Origin: a virus
Taxonomy: Duplodnaviria > Heunggongvirae > Uroviricota > Caudoviricetes
Virus record (IMG/VR): IMGVR_UViG_2648501669_000026
Strand: one strand, 5' to 3'
DNA length: 12,061 nt
Positions 1-12,061 of this stretch are shown piece by piece (position 1 is the stretch's first letter; each line of letters starts with the position of its first letter). Under the pieces are notes generated by a model, which was given only the letters and a program-made list of their open reading frames with translations, was not told the origin of the DNA and searched no databases. The translations under genes and the position numbers were made by a program.

Positions 1-1041
1 ATGGCATTACCGTTAAGGGATTATTATCCAGTTACCCGCGCCGCGAATTTACTTGGCTGTGAAGTGAACGATTTGTTCCACTGGGCGAGAAGGGGGTATA
101 TAGAATTATATGCGTATATTGATTCGGCTTGTGGTGTTGTTCACATGCATGAGCTTGATTATTTTCTCCCATTTATTGATCAAGAGGTGAGGGGGTGGGT
201 TAAATCGTTGCAAGAAGAATCTTTACGGGCTGAACTGGATGATTTTGTGGATGAAAAAATCAACAGAACAATGGGCGTTTTTTGTAAGTTAAATTACCTG
301 AAAGAAGAAAGAATATACTTGTACTCTCTTTTGAACTTTCTGGCTAAAGGATGGGTTAATACGGGCTTCTGCTGGTTAAAAAATCTTAAAAATGAAGCCC
401 GGAAGAGTGTCGAAGATGCCTATTATTTCGAGGATGTATGCGCCGAACATTCTTTTAATCGTGATAGCGAATATATTGCAGAAGTGGGCGGTTTTTTTTC
501 TATTGATTCTCATAATATACTTGAAGATATTGAATTAAATGGATGTTGTATTTGTTCTGGTGAAAATTTTGAAGGTGTATATAGCGGGTTGTCTGTTTTT
601 CTTCCTCAAAGCAATAATATAAATCTAAACAAAAATAACCTGTTTTTATTCAAAGATGATTTTATCATTCTTAATGATTTCTCTTCTGAAAAAGAAGGTG
701 ATACAGGAGAGCAATTGAATAAAAAATATTTATATGGCTATGATATGGAGTCAATATATATTCAATTGAACGAGAAGAATACATTCTTTCAACCCTGCGA
801 TGAGTCGATTAGTAGACAAAATGAGCATAAAAAAGAATTAAACCCTCAGCTTGATAAAAAAACGCGAGTATCCAAAGCAGAAAGAGTATTTATACAATTG
901 GCAATAAAAGAACATTACCACGAGTTTATAGACAGTCCGGGAACCATTGCCAATATATTCACCGCCTTGTCTAAAAAGCATGAAAGCCCTTTCGATTTCG
1001 ATAAAAGCACCATAGGCAGGTGGATTAAAACCGCTCGCTAA
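1..1041 (+). CDS. Hypothetical protein; N-terminal excisionase/MerR-type helix-turn-helix fused to an AT-rich body of unknown function. May be 5'-truncated by the window edge.
   Basis: 346-codon open frame from position 1, stop TAA 1039..1041. Residues ~8-35 (YYPVTRAANLLGCEVNDLFHWARRGYIEL) match the HTH_17/excisionase pattern. GC is about 40-47% in the first ~180 nt and about 23-35% in the rest (hand counts of 60-nt blocks), against about 50% in neighbouring genes. No family recognised for the body. Confidence 0.6.
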   Translation: MALPLRDYYPVTRAANLLGCEVNDLFHWARRGYIELYAYIDSACGVVHMHELDYFLPFIDQEVRGWVKSLQEESLRAELDDFVDEKINRTMGVFCKLNYLKEERIYLYSLLNFLAKGWVNTGFCWLKNLKNEARKSVEDAYYFEDVCAEHSFNRDSEYIAEVGGFFSIDSHNILEDIELNGCCICSGENFEGVYSGLSVFLPQSNNINLNKNNLFLFKDDFIILNDFSSEKEGDTGEQLNKKYLYGYDMESIYIQLNEKNTFFQPCDESISRQNEHKKELNPQLDKKTRVSKAERVFIQLAIKEHYHEFIDSPGTIANIFTALSKKHESPFDFDKSTIGRWIKTAR

Positions 1042-2370: not shown

Positions 2371-3423
2371 ATGTTTTTTAATATTAATGACCTGAAAGAT
2401 AAAGCCGGAAGCGTGCTTGAAAATATCAATATTTCATCTCCAGCGGTGAACGAAAATGAAACTGACATTAATAGCGCGCTTGCAGAAAAAGATCTTTACG
2501 CACGCATCAGTGCATACACACAAAAAAATCCGTTTGTGCATTTTATTTCGCCCTCTAACTGGCTTTCCGGGCAAATAAAATACCTGTCAGTTAATCCGCA
2601 TCAGTCCGCTATTAACCTTATTGGGGATGCGCGCTTATCCACCGGACGCGCAGAGGAAGGACGCTTTAGCCGTGCCATGGATATTAAAGGCTCTCCGATT
2701 GAATGCTATGAGATGGACTCATGCGAATATCTCGACTGGATTAACTTGGTTGTGATGGCCAATGTGGCGAATGACGACAAAAACCGCGATGCACTGCTGG
2801 GGATTTTGTGTGGCTATCTGACCAGCAAAATTTATCTGGACGATCTGCGGATTGGCTTTAACGGCAAGTCAGCGGCAACCTTCACCACACCGGACACCAA
2901 CCCGAACGGCGAGGATGTTGCGCCCGGCTGGCATGAAATTGCCAGGAAGGCAAGCGAAGGACGACAGATTATCAGCGATGCCATTACGCTGGGCGCAGGT
3001 GGTGATTTTCCGGGGGTAGATGCACTGGCGCAGCATCTGATTAAAACGAAAATTGCCGCACAGTGGCAGAACGATCCACGCCTTGTGGTGATGGTGGGAT
3101 CAGAACTTGCAGCTGCCGAACGTCTGCGTCTTTTCAGCACCGCAAACGGCGCAGGAGATACCGAAGCCGCCAGCGCATGGGGAAGCACCATTGCCGGGCA
3201 TTTTGCCTTTGTGCCACCGTTTATGCCGGGTAAACGTCTGGCTGTGACCACACTCCCGAACCTGCTGATTAACATCATTGAAGGCTCTTACCGCACAGAG
3301 TTCGATATGAACAAAGACACCAAACGCCTGAACATGCGGGCATGGCGTCATCAGGGCTACGGGCTGGCGGATGTGAATCTTTACGCGGCAGTGGATGAGG
3401 GCGCGATTACGCTTAATCCGTGA
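2371..3423 (+). CDS. Putative P2 GpN-family major capsid-like protein (tentative)
   Basis: ATG 2371 with AAGGGG 5-6 nt upstream; the ORF-track start at 2299 overlaps the preceding gene and is rejected. Collinear motifs GFNG, NP-x3-DVAPGW, GAGGDFPGVDAL and DPRLVVMVGSEL match P2 GpN as I recall it (GFNG, DVAVGW, GKGGDYASLDAL, DPDLVVIVGRQL). Size 350 aa versus 357 aa for GpN. Based on memory only. Confidence 0.55.
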   Translation: MFFNINDLKDKAGSVLENINISSPAVNENETDINSALAEKDLYARISAYTQKNPFVHFISPSNWLSGQIKYLSVNPHQSAINLIGDARLSTGRAEEGRFSRAMDIKGSPIECYEMDSCEYLDWINLVVMANVANDDKNRDALLGILCGYLTSKIYLDDLRIGFNGKSAATFTTPDTNPNGEDVAPGWHEIARKASEGRQIISDAITLGAGGDFPGVDALAQHLIKTKIAAQWQNDPRLVVMVGSELAAAERLRLFSTANGAGDTEAASAWGSTIAGHFAFVPPFMPGKRLAVTTLPNLLINIIEGSYRTEFDMNKDTKRLNMRAWRHQGYGLADVNLYAAVDEGAITLNP

Positions 3424-3574: not shown

Positions 3575-3604
3575 TTGACTCGCTTTTTTGTCATGGCGTA
3601 TCGT
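3575..3604 (+). promoter_or_regulatory. Candidate sigma70-type promoter for the early operon
   Basis: TTGACT (3575..3580), 18-bp spacer, TATCGT (3599..3604). Paired AATCAC half-sites lie just upstream (3530..3550). Sequence-only prediction. Confidence 0.3.
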
Positions 3605-3633: not shown

Positions 3634-3817
3634 GTTTGACAGCCTGATTGTTAGAGCGGGTAGCCGCTATATTTCCGTAATGCGGTTTTTTTGTGCCCGT
3701 AATTCCACCCTACCCCGTATTATGGCGGGGCGTAATGGGGGAGCCTTTGCGCTCGCTGGTTTCTCTAACGCCAGTCTGTCAACCCTGTTACGTCCCGCCA
3801 CCATGTTTGACAGCGTG
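3634..3817 (+). promoter_or_regulatory. Untranslated leader with a 13-bp repeat triplet, P4 seqA/seqB/seqC-like
   Basis: GTTTGACAGCCTG (3634..3646) and GTTTGACAGCGTG (3805..3817) are direct repeats, 12/13 identical. CAGTCTGTCAACC (3772..3784) is an imperfect inverted copy (11/13 pairing). A short hairpin plus T7 run sits at 3680..3700. No SD-supported ORF between 3465 and 3856. Confidence 0.3.
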
Positions 3818-4684: not shown

Positions 4685-4990
4685 ATGTCTGAAAATCAGA
4701 ATTACGCAAATCTTTTACATAAAGAATATGTTGGTTTTTTTACAGAGGATGCAAAAGAAGATCTCACAGATGTAATTAGTCTCGTCAACCTTATATCTAT
4801 CATGTTTGATGAAAGAAGCTGCGGAGTGGGTGCAGAAATTACCAATAAAGATATTACATCTCTGTCTAATATTATTAGTCGGGAATTACAATCAATAAAA
4901 TCAGGTATGCATCTTTCTGGCGGCATTTTTTCATGGCGTCAGGCTGAAGCAGCAGGGATTGCCCGGAAACAAGAAGTAACGAGTAATTAA
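4685..4990 (+). CDS. Hypothetical 101-aa protein, AT-rich cargo-like gene just upstream of the primase
   Basis: ATG 4685 with GGGGAG 7 nt upstream. About 25-37% GC versus about 50% in flanking genes. No recognisable motif. The - strand ORF 4702..4926 overlapping it is treated as antisense artefact. Confidence 0.55.
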   Translation: MSENQNYANLLHKEYVGFFTEDAKEDLTDVISLVNLISIMFDERSCGVGAEITNKDITSLSNIISRELQSIKSGMHLSGGIFSWRQAEAAGIARKQEVTSN

Positions 4991-4996
4991 TAAAAG

Positions 4997-5019
4997 CCCA
5001 CTGCAAAAGGTGCAGTGGG
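4997..5019 (+). terminator. Stable hairpin between the 101-aa ORF and the primase start; weak terminator or translational control element
   Basis: CCCACTGCA (4997..5005), loop AAAGG, TGCAGTGGG (5011..5019), a 9-bp perfect stem. No T-run downstream on +; the 3' arm abuts the primase SD GGAGGG (5020..5025). Confidence 0.3.
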
Positions 5020-5032
5020 GAGGGATTTATAT

Positions 5033-7702
5033 ATGAAACATAACACCAGAAAAGAGATTATTAACCGTCTTATTCGTGATTACAACTTTAAAGAAGAAAA
5101 TAATTATCTTCGCTATGGTGTTTGTCCGCAATGTGGAAAGAAGGAACTGTTTACCAGTCTTGAGAGGCCGTACATCGTACACTGTGGCCGCGAAAATAAA
5201 TGCGGTGCAGACCTGCTGACCAAAGAACTTTACCCGGATGTGTTTTCGTCATGGTCAGATCGCTATATCAGTACGAAAGACGATCCATACGCAGCGGCGG
5301 TAGCTTATCTTCAGGAGGCGCGCAATATTGCTGTGGAGCCACTGAAAGGGGCATTTACTCAGGAGCGATACCAGGACAAGGAAAGCGGCGAACAGGCCGC
5401 TACTGTGCGTTTTACGCTGGCTGACGGCGTGTGGTGGGAGCGCATCATAGACCGACCGGAACGCTTCGCTCGCAAGGCGAATTTTTCCGGCAGTTACAAG
5501 GGGCTGTGGTGGGCTTATCCGGGAGCGGATTTAAGCAAGGCCAAAGAAATCTGGATTTGTGAGGGTATCTTTGATGCCATCAGCCTTAACCAGAATGGCA
5601 TTGCGGCCGTTTCTGTCATGTCTGCCGTGAACTACCCTGATAAATCGCTGGAAGAACTGGCGAAGCTGTGCGGGGATAATCCACGCCCGGTTATCGTGTG
5701 GGCGCTGGATAACGGGCGTGCGGGTGAGCGTTACGCGAAAAAACATGCAGAACGCAGCGCCGAAGACGGCTGGAGAACGGCGGCAGCATTACCAGGTAAA
5801 AACAGCAATAAACGCGACTGGAATGATTTACACATCGCCGGAAAGCTGCGTGGCCATGATGTGAAAAGATATCGTTATTACGGTGATTTATTGTTGGCGA
5901 AATCGCCGAGAGATAAGGCACTAATAATGTTTTCCTTTCGTGAGCGAAAGGAGTTTTATTTTCCCTTTGATAACCGTATTTTCTGGTTCAAGCTGGATAT
6001 TGAGCGCCATATGAAGGCTGTTGAGCGTGTCATTAATGAGCGAAATGTTGACGAAAATGAAGCGCGCAAAATTGCACTTAAGGAATCCGGTGCAGTAAAA
6101 GAAATCGCAAACTGTAACCCAGTACCGCTTTATTACATTCGAAACAATGACACGGATGAAGCATGGTATTACTTCCGTGTTACGTTCCCGGATGGTGCGA
6201 CGGTGAAAAACACCTTTACATCAGGTCAATTAACATCCGCATCTGAATTTAAAAAACGCCTGTTGCATGTGGCAAAAGGTGGTATTTATACCGGAACGAC
6301 TGCGCACCTTGATGCATTAATAAAAAATGACCTTCCCGCAATAAAAAATGTTATCGGTCAGGATTTTATCGGATACAACAAAGAGATTGGCGCATGGCTG
6401 TTTAATGATGTCGCGGTTTGTAATGGTAAAACCTACGAAATCAATGAAGAGGATTATTTTGAAATTGATGGCATAAACGCAAAACCATTGAATAAAAAAC
6501 CAATATTGCAGATTAACTATAAAAAACCGGATGAATTTACAACGTCCTGGGTGGAAGATCTCTGGCTGGCGTTTGGTGAAAAGGGAATTATTACCCTGGC
6601 CTTCTGGCTGGGTTCGTTGTTCAGCGAACAAATCAGGCAGAAAAACGCATCTTACCCCTTTCTTGAGATTACCGGAGAGCCTGGAACGGGTAAAACAACG
6701 CTGATTGATTTTTGCTGGCGTTTGTGTGGCCGTGACAACTATGAAGGTGTTGATCCAACCAAAGGATCGGAATCAGGCTGGAAGCGAACTTTTGGACAGG
6801 TCGCCGGATTACCTGTTGTTCTGATTGAGGCAGACCGGGGGGACAATGCGCAAAAAAGAGGTGCGTTTGACTTTGATAACCTGAAAAGCCTCTATAACGG
6901 CGGTGGTATTGGGGTACGTGGTGTTAAAACTAATGATAACGCCACATATGACCCTGTTTTTAAAGGGGCTGTCGTGATTGCGCAGAATGCCACGGTAAAT
7001 GCCTCATCGGCAATTATCGAGCGTCTGGTACGTATATACACCGATAAAAAACGCCACTCACCAGATAGCCGACTGGCAGCAAAACGGCTGGAGCTTTACC
7101 CCGTTGAGCAGGTATCAGGTTTTATCCATCGGGCAGTAAGCCAGGAGCGGGCGATTATGGATTTGTTTATGGCACTCTCGGATCCTGAAACAGCCCGCCT
7201 TTACAGTTGCGAAAATATTCGCCATCAGCGTATTGCCAAAAATCACGCGCAACTAATTGCACTGGTCAGGGTGCTGAAATGCGTTATTGATATCCCGGAT
7301 GAATGGCTTGATGCCACATGTCTGGAACTGGAGCGAATGGCAGAGGAACAGGCTAAAGCGGTAATGGATGACTTGCCGGAAGTGATGGCGTTCTGGGAGG
7401 CGTTCGACTATCTGGACGGCATAACAGCATACGGCGTAAATCATTTTGGCAAGGGACGGCAGAATGAGTTTGCCGTCAGTATCCCGCAACTTGAGCAGGT
7501 TGCCGCCGTTCACCATGTGAAGATCCAAACCAATCCCGAAATGATAAAGCTTCTCAAGGCTGGCCGTTCTCGATCGCTGATTGGATACAAGCCCGTCCGT
7601 AGCGAGGTATCCAGACAGGCGAACGCCGGGAGGGGGATAGCCGAGGCCAGAGAGAAGGAGGTATTGAAATGCTGGATATTTAGTAACAAGGAGGGGGCTT
7701 AA
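5033..7702 (+). CDS. Bifunctional DNA primase/helicase (N-terminal zinc ribbon, TOPRIM primase, P-loop NTPase), P4 alpha-like replication protein
   Basis: ATG 5033 with GGAGGG 8 nt upstream; the ORF-track GTG at 5015 lies inside the hairpin. Zinc ribbon CPQCG...HCGRENKCG. TOPRIM motifs WICEGIFDAISL and VWALDNGRAGERYA. Walker A GEPGTGKTT and Walker B-like VVLIEAD. 889 aa. Confidence 0.9.
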   Translation: MKHNTRKEIINRLIRDYNFKEENNYLRYGVCPQCGKKELFTSLERPYIVHCGRENKCGADLLTKELYPDVFSSWSDRYISTKDDPYAAAVAYLQEARNIAVEPLKGAFTQERYQDKESGEQAATVRFTLADGVWWERIIDRPERFARKANFSGSYKGLWWAYPGADLSKAKEIWICEGIFDAISLNQNGIAAVSVMSAVNYPDKSLEELAKLCGDNPRPVIVWALDNGRAGERYAKKHAERSAEDGWRTAAALPGKNSNKRDWNDLHIAGKLRGHDVKRYRYYGDLLLAKSPRDKALIMFSFRERKEFYFPFDNRIFWFKLDIERHMKAVERVINERNVDENEARKIALKESGAVKEIANCNPVPLYYIRNNDTDEAWYYFRVTFPDGATVKNTFTSGQLTSASEFKKRLLHVAKGGIYTGTTAHLDALIKNDLPAIKNVIGQDFIGYNKEIGAWLFNDVAVCNGKTYEINEEDYFEIDGINAKPLNKKPILQINYKKPDEFTTSWVEDLWLAFGEKGIITLAFWLGSLFSEQIRQKNASYPFLEITGEPGTGKTTLIDFCWRLCGRDNYEGVDPTKGSESGWKRTFGQVAGLPVVLIEADRGDNAQKRGAFDFDNLKSLYNGGGIGVRGVKTNDNATYDPVFKGAVVIAQNATVNASSAIIERLVRIYTDKKRHSPDSRLAAKRLELYPVEQVSGFIHRAVSQERAIMDLFMALSDPETARLYSCENIRHQRIAKNHAQLIALVRVLKCVIDIPDEWLDATCLELERMAEEQAKAVMDDLPEVMAFWEAFDYLDGITAYGVNHFGKGRQNEFAVSIPQLEQVAAVHHVKIQTNPEMIKLLKAGRSRSLIGYKPVRSEVSRQANAGRGIAEAREKEVLKCWIFSNKEGA

Positions 7703-7704
7703 GT

Positions 7705-8706
7705 ATGTCGATCAGAAAGATGGATGATGGGCGATGGCTGCTCGATATCAGGCCACAAGGGGCGTACGGCAAACGGATACGTAAAATTTTTGTCAGGAAA
7801 GGGAGTGCAGAGGCCTTCGAACAATATATTTTACAGAATTTCCATAACAACCCATGGCTGGCTAAACCTGCTGATCGGCGGCGATTATCAGAGCTGCTTG
7901 ATACATGGTGGATGCTTGATGGCCGTAACCAGGCTTACGGCGATACCTACAGGATCCGGCTGGAGAAAGTGATTCGTGAAATGGGAGATCCGCGCGCCAG
8001 CCAGATGACGCAAAAATTTATGCTTGAGTATCGGTCAGAGAAATTACAGGCCGGCTTAATGCCATCCAGCATTAATCGTGACTTGTGCGTTCTGTCTACC
8101 ATGTTCACGGTGCTGATTGAAGCAGGGGTCTTTCACAACCCGAACCCTGTGCGCAGTATACGCAAGCTAAAAATTCAGAATACAGAGATGGCCTTTCTTT
8201 CTGATGATGAGATTGAACGGCTTCTTGAGCGACTGGAGGGGGATGCGCGTCGTGTTGCCATTCTGTGTCTTTCTACTGGTGCCCGATGGAGTGAAGCATC
8301 GGAACTACGTGGAGAGCATATCGTTGGCAACCGTGTGACGTTTTTTAACACCAAAAACGGAAAATCCCGCTCGGTTCCTGTGGCGGATTCGGTCGTGCCG
8401 CTGATTAAAACCCGTCGGACGGGGTTGTTGTATCAGGTTGATTATCTGGAGTTCCGGGAGATTCTTCAGGAGGTTAAGCCGGATTTGCCGAAGGGGCAGG
8501 CTACGCATGTTATGCGTCATACATTTGCCACACACTTTATGATGAATGGTGGGAATATCGTTACATTACAACGGATTCTTGGACATGCGACTATCCAGCA
8601 AACGATGACTTATGCGCATTTTTCTCCCGACTATCTGGCGGATGCCATGAGGTTTAACCCGATAGCTAACATGGCATTCACTGAACAAAAAGAGCCAGCA
8701 GAGTAA
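7705..8706 (+). CDS. int: Tyrosine recombinase / integrase, P2 Int-like
   Basis: 333 aa. Catalytic-domain motifs AILCLSTGARWSEA, HVMRHTFATHFM and LGHATIQQTMTYAHF; N-terminal DGRWLLDIRPQG...GKRIRK. Close to P2 Int in length and motifs as I recall it. ATG is 2 nt after the primase stop and shares the SD AAGGAGGGGG. Confidence 0.92.
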   Translation: MSIRKMDDGRWLLDIRPQGAYGKRIRKIFVRKGSAEAFEQYILQNFHNNPWLAKPADRRRLSELLDTWWMLDGRNQAYGDTYRIRLEKVIREMGDPRASQMTQKFMLEYRSEKLQAGLMPSSINRDLCVLSTMFTVLIEAGVFHNPNPVRSIRKLKIQNTEMAFLSDDEIERLLERLEGDARRVAILCLSTGARWSEASELRGEHIVGNRVTFFNTKNGKSRSVPVADSVVPLIKTRRTGLLYQVDYLEFREILQEVKPDLPKGQATHVMRHTFATHFMMNGGNIVTLQRILGHATIQQTMTYAHFSPDYLADAMRFNPIANMAFTEQKEPAE

Positions 8707-8736
8707 CCCGCAGAACGCTACATTCACAGCAAAAGA

Positions 8737-8761
8737 GGTCAGTTTTCCACTGGCCTTTTTT
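8737..8761 (+). terminator. Rho-independent terminator after int
   Basis: Stem GGTCAGT (8737..8743) / ACTGGCC (8749..8755) with one G-U pair, loop TTTCC, then six T (8756..8761). Confidence 0.7.
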
Positions 8762-8953
8762 GTTGGCCAAAGCCAACGGTAACAGCAATGCAATGGTGGC
8801 CATATTGCAGCGGTGCCGCCATCAATTTTTTTGCTCTCCCTTCCTGATTATCAGGAAAGAGTCAAATAGTGGCGAGATACATTTTAATCACAGAGAGTTA
8901 ATGAGAGTGAGACATAGTGAGTGAGTTTAATTAACATTTTAAAGGGTTGCGCT

Positions 8954-9277
8954 AAAATCCGGGGGGGGGTGCGGAAACGGGTTACAAAGGTTACAAACAG
9001 AAAAATATATTATATATCAATATATTATAATACATTTAAAAGGTTACAAACGGGTTACAACAGGGTTACATGTAACCTTTATGTAGTGGTTACTGTTGGT
9101 TACAGGTTAAATTTATAATTAATTGATAATTAATCTGTTTTTTAGAGCTGTAACCTCGTGTAACCTTCTGTAACCTCAAAAAGGTTACAAGCAATTTCAT
9201 TTAAAATCATGATGTTAATGTGTGTTTTAAGGAGCTGTAACCTTTGTAACCCGTTTCCGCACCCCCTACCGGATTTT
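8954..9277. repeat. Iteron array bounded by a long inverted repeat; putative origin of replication of the element
   Basis: 13 exact heptamers. GGTTACA on + at 8980, 8989, 9042, 9053, 9064, 9098, 9183; TGTAACC at 9071, 9149, 9159, 9169, 9236, 9245. Three are phased at exactly 10 bp (9149/9159/9169). Palindrome GGTTACATGTAACC at 9064..9077. 30-bp perfect inverted repeat 8966..8995 / 9236..9265, extending to 42 bp (8954..8995 / 9236..9277) with 2 mismatches. AT-rich core 9001..9040 (2 G/C in 40 nt). Confidence 0.6.
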
Positions 9278-9415: not shown

Positions 9416-9670
9416 GTGCGCAGACAGAAAGCGCGGTGTTTTTGCTGTGGTGAGCGCGCAGTGATTGAAAAGACCGTCTGGAAAGATGATCGGTTTGCTG
9501 ACGTGTATTACCGTTGCAAGCGTCTTGAGTGCGGACATACCTGGGTAATGAATCTGACCTACTCGCACACGCTGACCCCCAGCGGACTGGAGAACGGCGT
9601 GTTGAAGCTGTTGATCGAACGAATGCGCCCGGAGGAAAAACAAATGGCGCTGGAACTACTACAGGCCTGA
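9416..9670 (+). CDS. Ogr/Delta-family zinc-finger transcriptional activator-like protein
   Basis: GTG 9416 with GAGGTG 5 nt upstream. C-x2-C, 22 residues, C-x4-C (CFCCGERA...CKRLEC), the same cysteine spacing as P2 Ogr as I recall it. 84 aa. Confidence 0.7.
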   Translation: MRRQKARCFCCGERAVIEKTVWKDDRFADVYYRCKRLECGHTWVMNLTYSHTLTPSGLENGVLKLLIERMRPEEKQMALELLQA

Positions 9671-9687
9671 GGATACCAGCCAAAAGA

Positions 9688-9715
9688 AAACCCGCAGCTT
9701 TTACACGGCGGGTTT
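9688..9715. terminator. Hairpin downstream of the ogr-like gene, bidirectional-looking
   Basis: AAACCCGC (9688..9695), 12-nt loop, GCGGGTTT (9708..9715). The better U-tract is on the - strand (TTTTCTTTTG from 9681..9690). Confidence 0.4.
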
Positions 9716-10206
9716 GTGATGTTCATGACTGCAGATAGGGTGCCGTTCCGGCCTTTACCCTGGCAACCGATTGACGGGGAAGTTGACTTCCCCGTCGCGG
9801 TTCCTTACTGTGTAGACTTACATTGTAAGAATGCCGCAATTTCCGTTCCTGCAAACCTGAATCGCAACTCACAAGGTGATGTGTGGAGGATCCAGATTAT
9901 CGCTACTGCGGTTAAACACAGTAGCAGGGTTTTTAACGGAATTTGCGTCATAGCGCTTGCTCCTTTGGTGGAGAGGCGCTAACCTTCTACTTGTCAAGGT
10001 ACGAAGTGTTAGGGCCTCGGGTTAACATTAAAGTTGACTCGGGGCCTTTCCACATCTGGCCTTCGGGTATTCCCTCCGACCATCAGCCGAAAGGCACCCG
10101 CAGCGATTCTAGCCTGGTTGCCATACCCGCATCAATCACCCGCCACATCGCTTTATCGCTCGCAAATCAGCAACCTGACGCTACTTTACGTCGCTCTGTC
10201 CGGCAT

Positions 10207-11277: not shown

Positions 11278-11524
11278 CTTTGTTTAATCCTGTTGATTGG
11301 TTGTCGACGTTGCGACCTGGCTGAATCATAACAGTGAGTAGAGCGGGCGCAAGTTGGTGTGAGGTGACACATAAGGTACAATTTGCGGCCTTAAAGTGTT
11401 CTCATGTGTTCTGGTGTTGTCTGCCTGCGATATTGTTTTGTGTATCAATTGGTGTATCAATATCGATATTTGCAGAGAATTAAAACGAAATTAAATTCAC
11501 TGAAATCAATGTGATAGGTTATTG

Positions 11525-12061
11525 ATGAAACATTATGTAGAAGTAATGATCCCCGAAGCGGAGATTAAAGCGCGTATCGCCGAACTGGGTCGTCAGATTA
11601 CTGAGCGTTACAAAGACAGCGGCAGCGATATGGTGCTGGTGGGTCTGCTGCGTGGCTCATTTATGTTTATGGCGGACCTGTGCCGTGAAGTTCAGGTATC
11701 TCATGAAGTCGACTTTATGACCGCCTCCAGCTACGGTAGCGGCATGTCCACCACCCGTGATGTGAAAATCCTCAAAGATCTGGATGAAGATATCCGTGGC
11801 AAGGACGTGCTGATTGTTGAAGATATCATCGACTCGGGGAATACACTGTCGAAAGTGCGTGAGATCTTAAGCCTGCGCGAACCGAAGTCGCTGGCGATTT
11901 GTACGCTGCTGGATAAACCGTCCCGTCGTGAAGTGAACGTCCCGGTAGAATTTATCGGTTTCTCGATCCCGGATGAGTTTGTGGTGGGTTACGGCATTGA
12001 TTACGCACAGCGTTACCGTCATCTGCCGTATATCGGCAAAGTGATTCTGCTGGACGAGTAA
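11525..12061 (+). CDS. hpt: Hypoxanthine phosphoribosyltransferase
   Basis: The protein [52 protein letters not shown]...[17 protein letters not shown]...GKVILLDE is near-identical to E. coli Hpt as I recall it, including the PRTase motif [16 protein letters not shown] 11525; the ORF-track start at 11522 is TTG. Stop at the window end. Confidence 0.95.

Follow-up and report, generated by a model that had tools for sequence, protein, structure and literature searches.

A P2-type integrase gene directly follows the primase-helicase gene in a P4-like satellite island

The DNA stretch analyzed here, referred to as the window, spans 12,061 nucleotides (nt) of the IMG/VR virus record IMGVR_UViG_2648501669_000026. 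It is most of an approximately 13-kb P4-like, P2-dependent satellite island that lies between gcd and hpt, inserted in the 5' end of hpt. Positions 5033–8706 are the distal part of a P4-style early or 'left' operon and carry two genes, one for a primase-helicase-initiator and one, int2, for a second tyrosine recombinase. The operon is ordered as promoter region, C4/CI RNA, Icd-like region (a label taken from annotation in relatives), small open reading frames (ORFs), primase-helicase-initiator, and int2, followed by a terminator and an iteron origin. Related loci are referred to by L numbers, and the features central to this analysis are as follows.

3718..3805, + strand: C4/CI-type antisense immunity RNA; Rfam RF01695, bit score 72.8 (gathering score 45), E 5e-13
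5033..7702, + strand: primase-helicase-initiator, 889 amino acids (aa); the ATG at 5033 matches the annotated starts in relatives (MKHNTRKE)
6125..6230, + strand: mosaic breakpoint zone in the primase gene, from difference counts against L001, L002, and L005
6299..6562, + strand: AT-rich segment of the primase gene, aa 423–510; helix 423–436, strands 438–485, and the start of helix 506–528
7688–7697, + strand: Shine-Dalgarno (SD) sequence for int2, AAGGAGGGGG, in the last primase codons, read directly from the sequence
7705..8706, + strand: int2, second tyrosine recombinase of P2-phage type, 333 aa; Pfam Int_N 3.7e-29 and Phage_integrase 1e-18
8727–8765, + strand: intrinsic-terminator-like hairpin with a U run; folding free energy (dG) -25.1 kcal/mol, z-score (z) -6.2, 0 of 200 shuffles equally stable
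8954..9277, strand not applicable: origin-like region; an AT-rich stretch surrounded by 13 GGTTACA iterons of either orientation
11440..11548, + strand: right attachment junction with tandem GTGTATCAAT repeats; the island provides the 5' end of hpt

The primase-int2 unit and the island's own integrase

The C4/CI RNA, an immunity element of P4/P1 type, lies upstream of the Icd-like region and points in the same transcription direction as the primase and int2 genes, so the region reads as a P4-like left operon with these two as its distal genes. The primase stop codon TAA at 7700–7702 is followed, after a 2-nt gap, by the int2 ATG at 7705. Read from the sequence, the junction runs ...aaGGAGGgggct TAA gt ATG tcg..., or more fully ...AAGGAGGGGGCT TAA GT ATG TCG..., and the SD of int2 is contained within the 3' end of the primase gene. 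Both the spacing and the SD position had been pointed out in the initial annotation, and both are borne out. Coupled gene pairs are recognized by a start codon a few nt past the upstream stop and an SD inside the upstream gene, and the primase and int2 genes have this arrangement. With its start so close to the primase stop and its SD inside the primase gene, int2 would be made whenever the primase is translated. RNA folding gave no significant structure for the junction RNA (7650–7760, z -0.33), and with no sequestering structure predicted, independent initiation of int2 at its strong SD is possible.

A consensus scan of the + strand found neither promoter-like nor terminator-like sites at 7000–7705. 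The hairpin at 8727–8765, located 3' of int2 and conserved in the E. coli loci, is predicted to end the primase-int2 transcription unit. The junction is kept across 11 loci from E. coli, Escherichia sp., and Yersinia enterocolitica. The pattern TAA-NN-ATG with an upstream SD is found in the window, L001, L002, L003, L005, L006, L010, and the Yersinia locus L011, the SD being AAGGAG in E. coli and Escherichia sp. and AAAGGGGGA in Yersinia, and the 2-nt gap is likewise present in L025 and L026. The exception is L004, in which the two genes overlap by 4 nt (ATGA). Collectively, the tight spacing, the SD within the primase gene, the absence of an intervening promoter- or terminator-like site in the scan, the terminator after int2, and the conservation across genera support an arrangement for co-expression, as had been proposed.

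The integrase that belongs to the island itself is located elsewhere. In relatives, a P4-type integrase gene (arm-DNA-bind_3) lies directly before the sequence matching window position 1, that is, outside the window; in strains DLI.6n and A36, position 1 is matched by the initial base of the ORF that comes after an approximately 400-aa P4-type integrase. This gene adjoins the left junction in L001–L006, L011, L025, and L026, and all 11 islands inspected have it as a neighbor and are located at argW or hpt. At the right junction, hpt starts at about 11522 and its first codons are supplied by the island (MKHYVEVM versus MKHTVEVM). At the left junction of relatives, the original hpt start ATGAAACATACTGTAGAAGTAATG and GTGTATCAAT repeats lie beside the P4-type integrase gene (L005 3440–3610). 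Both island ends thus carry a duplicated hpt 5' end and tandem GTGTATCAAT repeats, and these repeats are probably the arm sites of the P4-type integrase. Furthermore, an identical primase (WP_032235515) and an identical int2 product (WP_042091426) occur at argW/yfdC in ETEC1748 and at gcd/hpt in DLI.6n, where the P4-type integrases differ. Int2 is therefore not the island's own integrase.

A phage-type attachment site for Int2 was sought around the gene. The core of the closest phage, determined from attL and attR of UTI89, is the 20-nt AAAGCGCCTGCGGGCGCTTT in the serS terminator, and it is absent from the window in a search with mismatches allowed. The best match, TTTTTTGCTCTCCCTT at 8827, pairs with chromosomal DNA outside the 20-nt core and is thus not a core. 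Clusters of the P2 arm repeat, with the consensus tgTGGaCa (PMC3448106), are not found on the island. Two candidate repeats, GGTGGCCAT at 8795 and GGTGCCGCCAT at 8812, are similar to the arm consensus of 186 type, but they differ from locus to locus and were dropped as unsupported. For the other int2 classes described below, the attP region of a class B phage and its island have in common only 11- to 12-mers at chance level, and the stretch downstream of int in phage P88 gives no match of at least 11 nt to the class C island. In every copy, int2 is flanked on both sides by contiguous island DNA. Int2 thus appears to be an integrase that has lost the phage attP.

These results bear on two integration roles. 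The initial annotation had taken the coupled gene as the element's own integration function, co-regulated with replication. The tight coupling on which that idea was built is real and conserved, but a separate P4-type integrase with matching att sequences lies at the island end, the same Int2 protein is found at two chromosomal sites, and int2 is without attP, which makes this role extremely improbable. Int2 could also be a back-up that puts the satellite into the attB of a P2-like phage when the primary site is missing or occupied. Int2 is a complete integrase that includes an arm-binding domain, this satellite family occupies more than one site and some genomes contain two copies, and an Enterobacter island lies beside the end of a P2-like prophage. 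Against such a back-up, no attP-like core or P2-type arm repeats were found on the island for any of the three E. coli classes, all 11 inspected islands are at argW or hpt next to the P4-type integrase gene with none at serS/dmsA, and int2 is embedded in island DNA throughout; we regard it as improbable. It is very likely, in our judgment, that the primase and int2 genes form a conserved bicistronic unit in which int2 encodes an accessory recombinase of helper type, and not the integrase of the island.

The primase, its mosaic structure, and the origin

The ATG at 5033 was taken as the primase start. A GTG at 5015 gives merely the mechanical longest ORF and was rejected, with relatives starting at MKHNTRKE. 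The protein contains a Zn ribbon (C31–C57), a DnaG-type Toprim domain (aa 172–268), a beta-rich region (aa about 420–500), an AAA+/P-loop ATPase with the Walker A motif GEPGTGKTT (aa 548–556, nt 6674–6700), and a C-terminal helical/winged part (aa about 740–889). Its Pfam matches are Toprim_2 and Toprim_3, and phrog_1139 covers it end to end (E 1e-300). The 874 homologues, 877–910 aa long among the matches listed, are encoded by other satellites and in early operons of certain P2-like phages (ESSI2_ev239, a Providencia prophage). A genome-contig scan with the single primase sequence gave one locus, and the wider context comes from the protein search and the homologue contigs.

A PDB sequence search with the primase returned no matches. 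An AlphaFold2 model built from 45 sequences has a mean predicted local distance difference test (pLDDT) score of 86.8. In Foldseek, the C-terminal approximately 500 residues of the model match the Cch helicase of staphylococcal cassette chromosome mec (SCCmec; 5dgk, E 1e-13) and Rep of the Staphylococcus aureus pathogenicity island (SaPI) SaPIbov1 (8tch, E 2e-10), and the N-terminal part matches the DnaG RNA-polymerase domain (5w33, E 2e-5). The model thus depicts one chain in which a Zn-ribbon/Toprim primase is joined to an initiator helicase of the Cch/SaPI-Rep kind.

The initial annotation had also noted that the GC content drops to about one-third around 6300–6560 and had interpreted this as an inserted linker or an exchanged domain. 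The drop is real, with 36.0% GC against 47.5% in the whole primase gene, and the lowest 261-nt stretch of the gene, at 6282, has 34.5%. It is mild, since 8.3% of the 261-nt windows across the 12 kb are as low or lower, and it forms the trough of a broader low-GC middle of the gene (5800–6530, GC 0.31–0.43). The encoded aa 423–510 have pLDDT values of 83–92 and form, in the model, a beta-rich domain directly before the helicase ATPase. They align with the Yersinia, Salmonella, Providencia, and phage ESSI2 homologues with at most one single-residue gap, the homologue genes share the GC dip (0.31–0.44), and the invariant residues include G447, A461, G465, N471, E473, D474, F476, K484, and W506. 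The near-gapless alignment, the shared dip, and the invariant residues identify the AT-rich stretch as an ancestral folded domain, and the interpretation as an insertion or exchange does not hold for it.

The gene is nevertheless mosaic, with a breakpoint at about 6125–6230, a short way 5' of the AT-rich part. Compared with L001 and L006, the window shows 5–8 differences per 100 nt as far as about 6125 and 0–2 beyond it. Against L002 and L005, the differences are 1–8 per 100 nt and climb to 8–28 past about 6230. The exchanged block comprises the whole 3' half of the primase gene and, in the lineage of the window, runs on through int2 and the origin. At the protein level, the divergence peaks at aa 740–889, with 60–78% identity.

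The origin-like region downstream is rich in one motif. GGTTACA occurs 14 times in the window against 1.1 expected, and 0 of 200 shuffles reach 14. A 42-nt inverted repeat (8954–8995 and 9236–9277, 95% complementary) brackets the whole iteron array, and a poly-G run within it at 8961–8969 ranges from 7 to 11 G among related islands. The iterons fall into two types by their flank. In type 1 islands (the window and L001), they read [A/G]GGTTACA with C at position -2 in 0 of 14, and L006 was grouped with type 1 by its same origin sequence in the alignment. In type 2 islands (L002, L004, L005, and Yersinia), 12 of 14 or 15 iterons read CGGTTACA. A GGTTACA-type array follows every primase of this family examined, including those of the Salmonella, Pectobacterium, and Enterobacter islands.

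Within the primase, it is the 3' half that covaries with the flank of the GGTTACA iterons. These comparisons point to an exchanged initiator-origin block whose specificity signal would lie in the C-terminal part of the protein and not in the AT-rich part. The suggestion that an exchanged primase segment is tied to iteron specificity is therefore retained for the 3' half, in view of the breakpoint and the covariation, and given up for the AT-rich part. The modeled helicase fold, together with the adjoining cognate iteron array, would also place the system with the Cch/SaPI-Rep type.

Two further observations concern this region. The best promoter-like match nearby, TTAACA-16-TAAAAT (10 of 12 positions, 8931–8958, + strand), points into the origin; the surrounding TTAATTAACATTTTAAAGGGTTGCGCTAAA is largely conserved, with a small number of substitutions, in the Yersinia island, and the preceding 220 nt are not. 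A Fim-type invertible switch upstream of ogr, made of the 42-nt repeats and the recombinase, was considered and rejected, as 65 of 67 genomes and six individually compared loci show a single orientation.

Alleles and possible role of int2

Int2 is laid out as an arm-binding N-terminus, a core-binding Int_N domain, a catalytic domain, and an island-specific C-terminal tail. At its start it lines up with phage integrases, whose N-termini read MSIK..., and the motifs ARWSE, TKNGKSR, HVMRHTFATH, LGHAT, and TYAHF are present in every allele, providing the residues R-K-H-R-H-Y. None of the 11 loci has a disrupted reading frame or catalytic residue. Within class A, the class of the window allele, the ratio of nonsynonymous to synonymous substitution rates (dN/dS) is 0.05–0.15 at a dS of about 0.5. 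Int2 is thus complete and under purifying selection.

Three classes of int2 are found in E. coli, and the Yersinia island carries a fourth. Class A is closest to the integrase of the serS/dmsA Peduoviridae prophage of UTI89 and sequence type 131 (ST131), with 86% identity overall, 90% in the core-binding domain (aa 56–160), and 99% in the catalytic domain (aa 161–308). Class B is 82% identical to the integrases of Xuanwuvirus P884B11 and Chuche, and class C is 77% identical to that of phage P88. Among themselves, the three classes are about 50–56% identical overall, 31–65% domain by domain, and 31–38% in the core-binding domain. In every E. coli class, only the final 20–25 residues are specific to the islands; the corresponding part of the phage genes overlaps the P' arm repeats. 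From the identities above, the alleles are clearly of phage origin.

The islands L002, L003, and L004 are 90–100% identical over 13 kb except for three blocks: the ORF after the P4-type integrase gene, an approximately 100-aa ORF before the primase gene, and the interior of int2. The int2 interiors have thus been swapped as allele cassettes in near-identical backbones, and the int2 class is independent of the primase/origin type. The first block (window 1–1041; L002 5600–6900) has a position typical of defence hotspots and the second (window 4685–4990; L002 8719–8919) that of P4 epsilon, and neither ORF of the window has a family assignment.

The distribution of int2 is narrower than that of the primase family. 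Salmonella and Pectobacterium islands with this primase family are without int2. An Enterobacter island (L021 1–2230 and 9680–11161) with a 54%-identical primase has a P2-type integrase gene after the iterons, followed by a small-terminase-like ORF, and lies directly beside the end of a P2-like prophage (GpU, GpD, Ogr). The int2-less islands and the Enterobacter order indicate that the ancestral order was primase gene and then origin. It appears that a P2-type integrase gene was placed near this replication module at two different positions. A tandem pair of elements, the second of which would start on its left with int2, was rejected, since the cognate iterons of the primase lie beyond int2 and the junction is only 2 nt.

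One could regard int2 as a passenger, debris of recombination between satellite and helper that brings the satellite no benefit. The alleles are derived from phage genes and the related Salmonella and Pectobacterium islands do without it, as a passenger would allow. Four points speak against it: the low class A dN/dS at considerable dS, the intact frames and catalytic residues in 11 loci, the coupling signal shared by E. coli and Yersinia across four allele classes, and the separate placement of a P2-type integrase gene in the Enterobacter island. A mere passenger is, accordingly, quite improbable.

The position of int2 between the initiator gene and the iterons, on a common transcript and arranged for translational coupling, would suit an accessory of the replicon, in which Int2 acts as a Cre/Xer-like resolvase and converts multimers to monomer circles at a site in or near the origin, for example the 42-nt inverted repeats. 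Monomer circles would aid stability in the plasmid state or packaging. P2 and P4 package from monomeric circles, the inverted repeat brackets the origin, and P4 has alpha, crr, attP, and int in this order on one strand, all in keeping with a resolvase. However, recombinase and site do not covary: three classes with core-binding identities of 31–38% lie upstream of DNA that is 90–100% identical, and the class does not follow the primase/origin type. The Salmonella and Pectobacterium islands have the same replicon type with no int2, the Enterobacter gene comes after the origin, and in 65 of the 67 genomes the orientation of the segment bracketed by the repeats is constant. Taken together, these points leave the resolvase an unlikely role.

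The reading that we prefer looks to the helper. We propose that the targets of Int2 are the att sites of a cognate P2-like helper phage, on which it would act in trans. The Cox protein of P2 silences Pc, the promoter for C and int, and Cox-dependent excision still requires Int (PMC3936717). As Cox represses Pc yet promotes excision, the supply of Int should limit a derepressed prophage. A cognate Int made by the satellite and co-expressed with its replication genes could provide the missing enzyme, the helper prophage would be excised and amplified and yield more late gene products, and swapping of alleles would retune the satellite to different helpers. Such action on helper att sites, which may run toward excision or toward forced integration, is a serious possibility that falls somewhat short of an even chance. 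The broader proposal is more doubtful: that the satellite uses an attP-less, helper-cognate integrase, wired to its replication gene, to act in trans on the physical state of the helper (excision or re-integration), and swaps alleles to follow its helpers.

Several observations weigh against this proposal. Islands with the same primase family exist without int2, as described above. Resident cognate prophages are not evidently enriched: 8 of 21 class A island genomes (ETEC4077, ETEC4079, TOE17, A36, P15-25, ETEC1732, ETEC1734, and ETEC1701) contain a second class-A-like int locus, but six of these eight contain the origin region two to three times, and the second loci in those six are probably second islands, not prophages. 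In the ST131 genome with the island (L025), the serS/dmsA site is empty. The arm-binding N-terminal domain of class A is only 53–68% identical to its phage counterpart, and class A has W where P2-type integrases have Y at the discriminator position proposed in PMC3448106. With this domain diverged and this residue changed, recognition of the helper arms may be altered. Finally, helper excision is not obviously required, given that P4 exploits an unexcised P2 prophage.

The same domain features can be read in the opposite direction, as interference with the helper. Int2 would bind the helper core and drive the helper back into attB, or poison its intasome, so that the helper continues to express its late genes but its genome stays out of the packaging pool. 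The core-binding and catalytic domains of helper type, the absence of attP, and allele swapping are compatible with this, and the diverged class A N-terminus and the island-specific tail could make a defective partner. The rapid turnover of alleles resembles that of an arms-race locus, and the other hypervariable blocks are at known defence-hotspot and epsilon positions. By contrast, the N-terminal domains of classes B and C are 71–84% identical to those of their phage relatives, unlike a deliberately crippled arm-binding domain, and Cox from an active helper inhibits integration (PMC3936717). Interference has, in our estimate, only a small probability.

Island gene content and comparison with known systems

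The remaining features of the island, listed below, place int2 in its wider context.

1111–1476: AlpA domain protein (AlpA/Vis); PF05930, E 6e-6
2371–3420: P2-family major capsid homologue, 350 aa; Pfam and PHROG matches
3575–3604: promoter-like TTGACT-18-TATCGT; consensus match only
4685..4990, + strand: 101-aa ORF directly upstream of the primase gene; no Pfam match and no BLASTP similarity
4997..5019, + strand: stem-loop that separates the upstream ORF from the primase SD, with GGGGAGGG abutting its 3' arm; dG -16.6 kcal/mol, z -3.1
9416..9670, + strand: Ogr/Delta-type late-gene activator; PF04606, E 1e-10; phrog_603

The Ogr/Delta gene appears to mark dependence on a P2-like helper. The stem-loop at 4997–5019 may serve in attenuation, RNA processing, or the control of translation. 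The ORF at 4685–4990 is hypervariable among otherwise near-identical islands, with 62–66% nt identity against more than 90% in its flanks. Related Salmonella and Enterobacter islands have a P4 epsilon-type 'Derepression' protein at this position (PF25738 in L020 and L021); Pfam and BLASTP detect no similarity between the ORF and epsilon-family proteins, so that the equivalence is one of position. Where P4 has Sid and Psu, the island carries the P2-family capsid homologue, and no Pfam or PHROG match to Sid or Psu was found among the 10 main ORFs, in a scan of ORFs of at least 70 aa. The origin region of the window is present in about 67 of 5426 complete E. coli genomes.

The capsid homologue varies in its placement. 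In the window, A36, and Yersinia, it has 350 aa, follows a 291-aa ORF, and lies upstream of the Icd-like region; the 423-aa version in the other E. coli islands is located downstream of ogr, beside mazEF (L001 15192–16463). The placements define two island architectures with one common replication module. A hok/mok-like host-killing region at 9670–10100 has 76–77% nt identity to the P2-like phages P88 and Chuche and is present in Stx phages too, and hok and ogr adjoin attL in the P2-like prophage of UTI89.

The most interesting outcome, beyond the sight of the initial annotation, is that the coupled 'integrase' is of the helper's family and not the satellite's. Satellites take over helper gene expression, capsid size, and packaging. 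In the searchable literature, we found no account of a satellite that has two integrases or one of helper type, nor of a takeover of helper integration or excision through a borrowed, attP-less integrase. In a large survey of P4-like satellites, rare integrases beside alpha were attributed to neighboring elements (PMC8628076). If the proposal is true, it would define a new class of helper hijacking, with a site-specific recombinase as the trans-acting weapon or tool of the satellite. If Int2 acts on helper att sites, the satellite-supplied Int would also be a genetic handle on the P2 Cox/Int puzzle. The near-isogenic islands differing in int2 class are ready material for specificity work. For annotation pipelines, the integrase nearest the replication gene need not mark the element boundary or the integration site.

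Among known systems, the island is most readily set beside P4. It resembles P4 in the C4/CI RNA upstream, the Icd-like gene, and a Zn-ribbon/Toprim primase-helicase-initiator as the last large operon gene, with a terminator and an iteron region next, as well as in the Ogr/Delta activator, AlpA/Vis, and the P4-type integrase. The left operon of P4 comprises the cI RNA, epsilon, orf151, and alpha, followed by crr, attP, and int, so that int likewise lies downstream of alpha on the same strand. However, P4 has one integrase, of P4 type, parted from alpha by a terminator, crr, and attP, whereas here a second, P2-type integrase gene precedes the terminator and iterons and starts 2 nt past the primase stop. 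The primase also belongs to another family than alpha; in BLASTP only the Toprim and P-loop stretches align, with 21–32% identity, and the Pfam domains D5_N, Pox_D5, and DUF5906 are in alpha and absent from this primase. A further difference is the capsid homologue in place of matches to Sid and Psu. The P4-like core set of SatelliteFinder consists of Int, AlpA, epsilon/ash, alpha, Sid, Delta, and Psu. The island has the P4-type integrase gene at its end (in relatives), the CI/C4 RNA, and AlpA/Vis with Delta/Ogr, and it lacks an alpha-type primase and matches to Sid and Psu.

In comparison with SaPI Rep and SCCmec Cch, the likeness suggested by the model lies in the C-terminal fold of approximately 500 residues, with the iteron origin beside the gene and covariation of protein and iterons. 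The difference is that helicase, DnaG-type primase, and Zn ribbon are here combined in one 889-aa chain. SaPIs encode their primase separately.

The P2-like phages are related to the island through both genes. The integrases of P2-like phages (Peduoviridae) have the same domain set, length, and catalytic residues as Int2, with 77–86% identity overall. In these phages, int follows the repressor gene C on the Pc transcript and abuts attP, with tgTGGaCa arm repeats overlapping its 3' end (PMC3448106). In contrast, int2 follows the primase gene, encodes an island-specific tail, and has no attP, and the satellite has another integrase. The primases of P2-like phages (phrog_1139; Evevirus ESSI2_ev239 gp29, the Providencia prophage) belong to the same family end to end, the ESSI2 protein being 42–75% identical in 40-residue windows over most of its length and less so near the C-terminus. 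In those phages, the primase gene is part of an early operon far from int, which is placed divergently at the att end. The direct primase-int2 junction thus appears specific to the satellite lineage of E. coli, Escherichia sp., and Yersinia.

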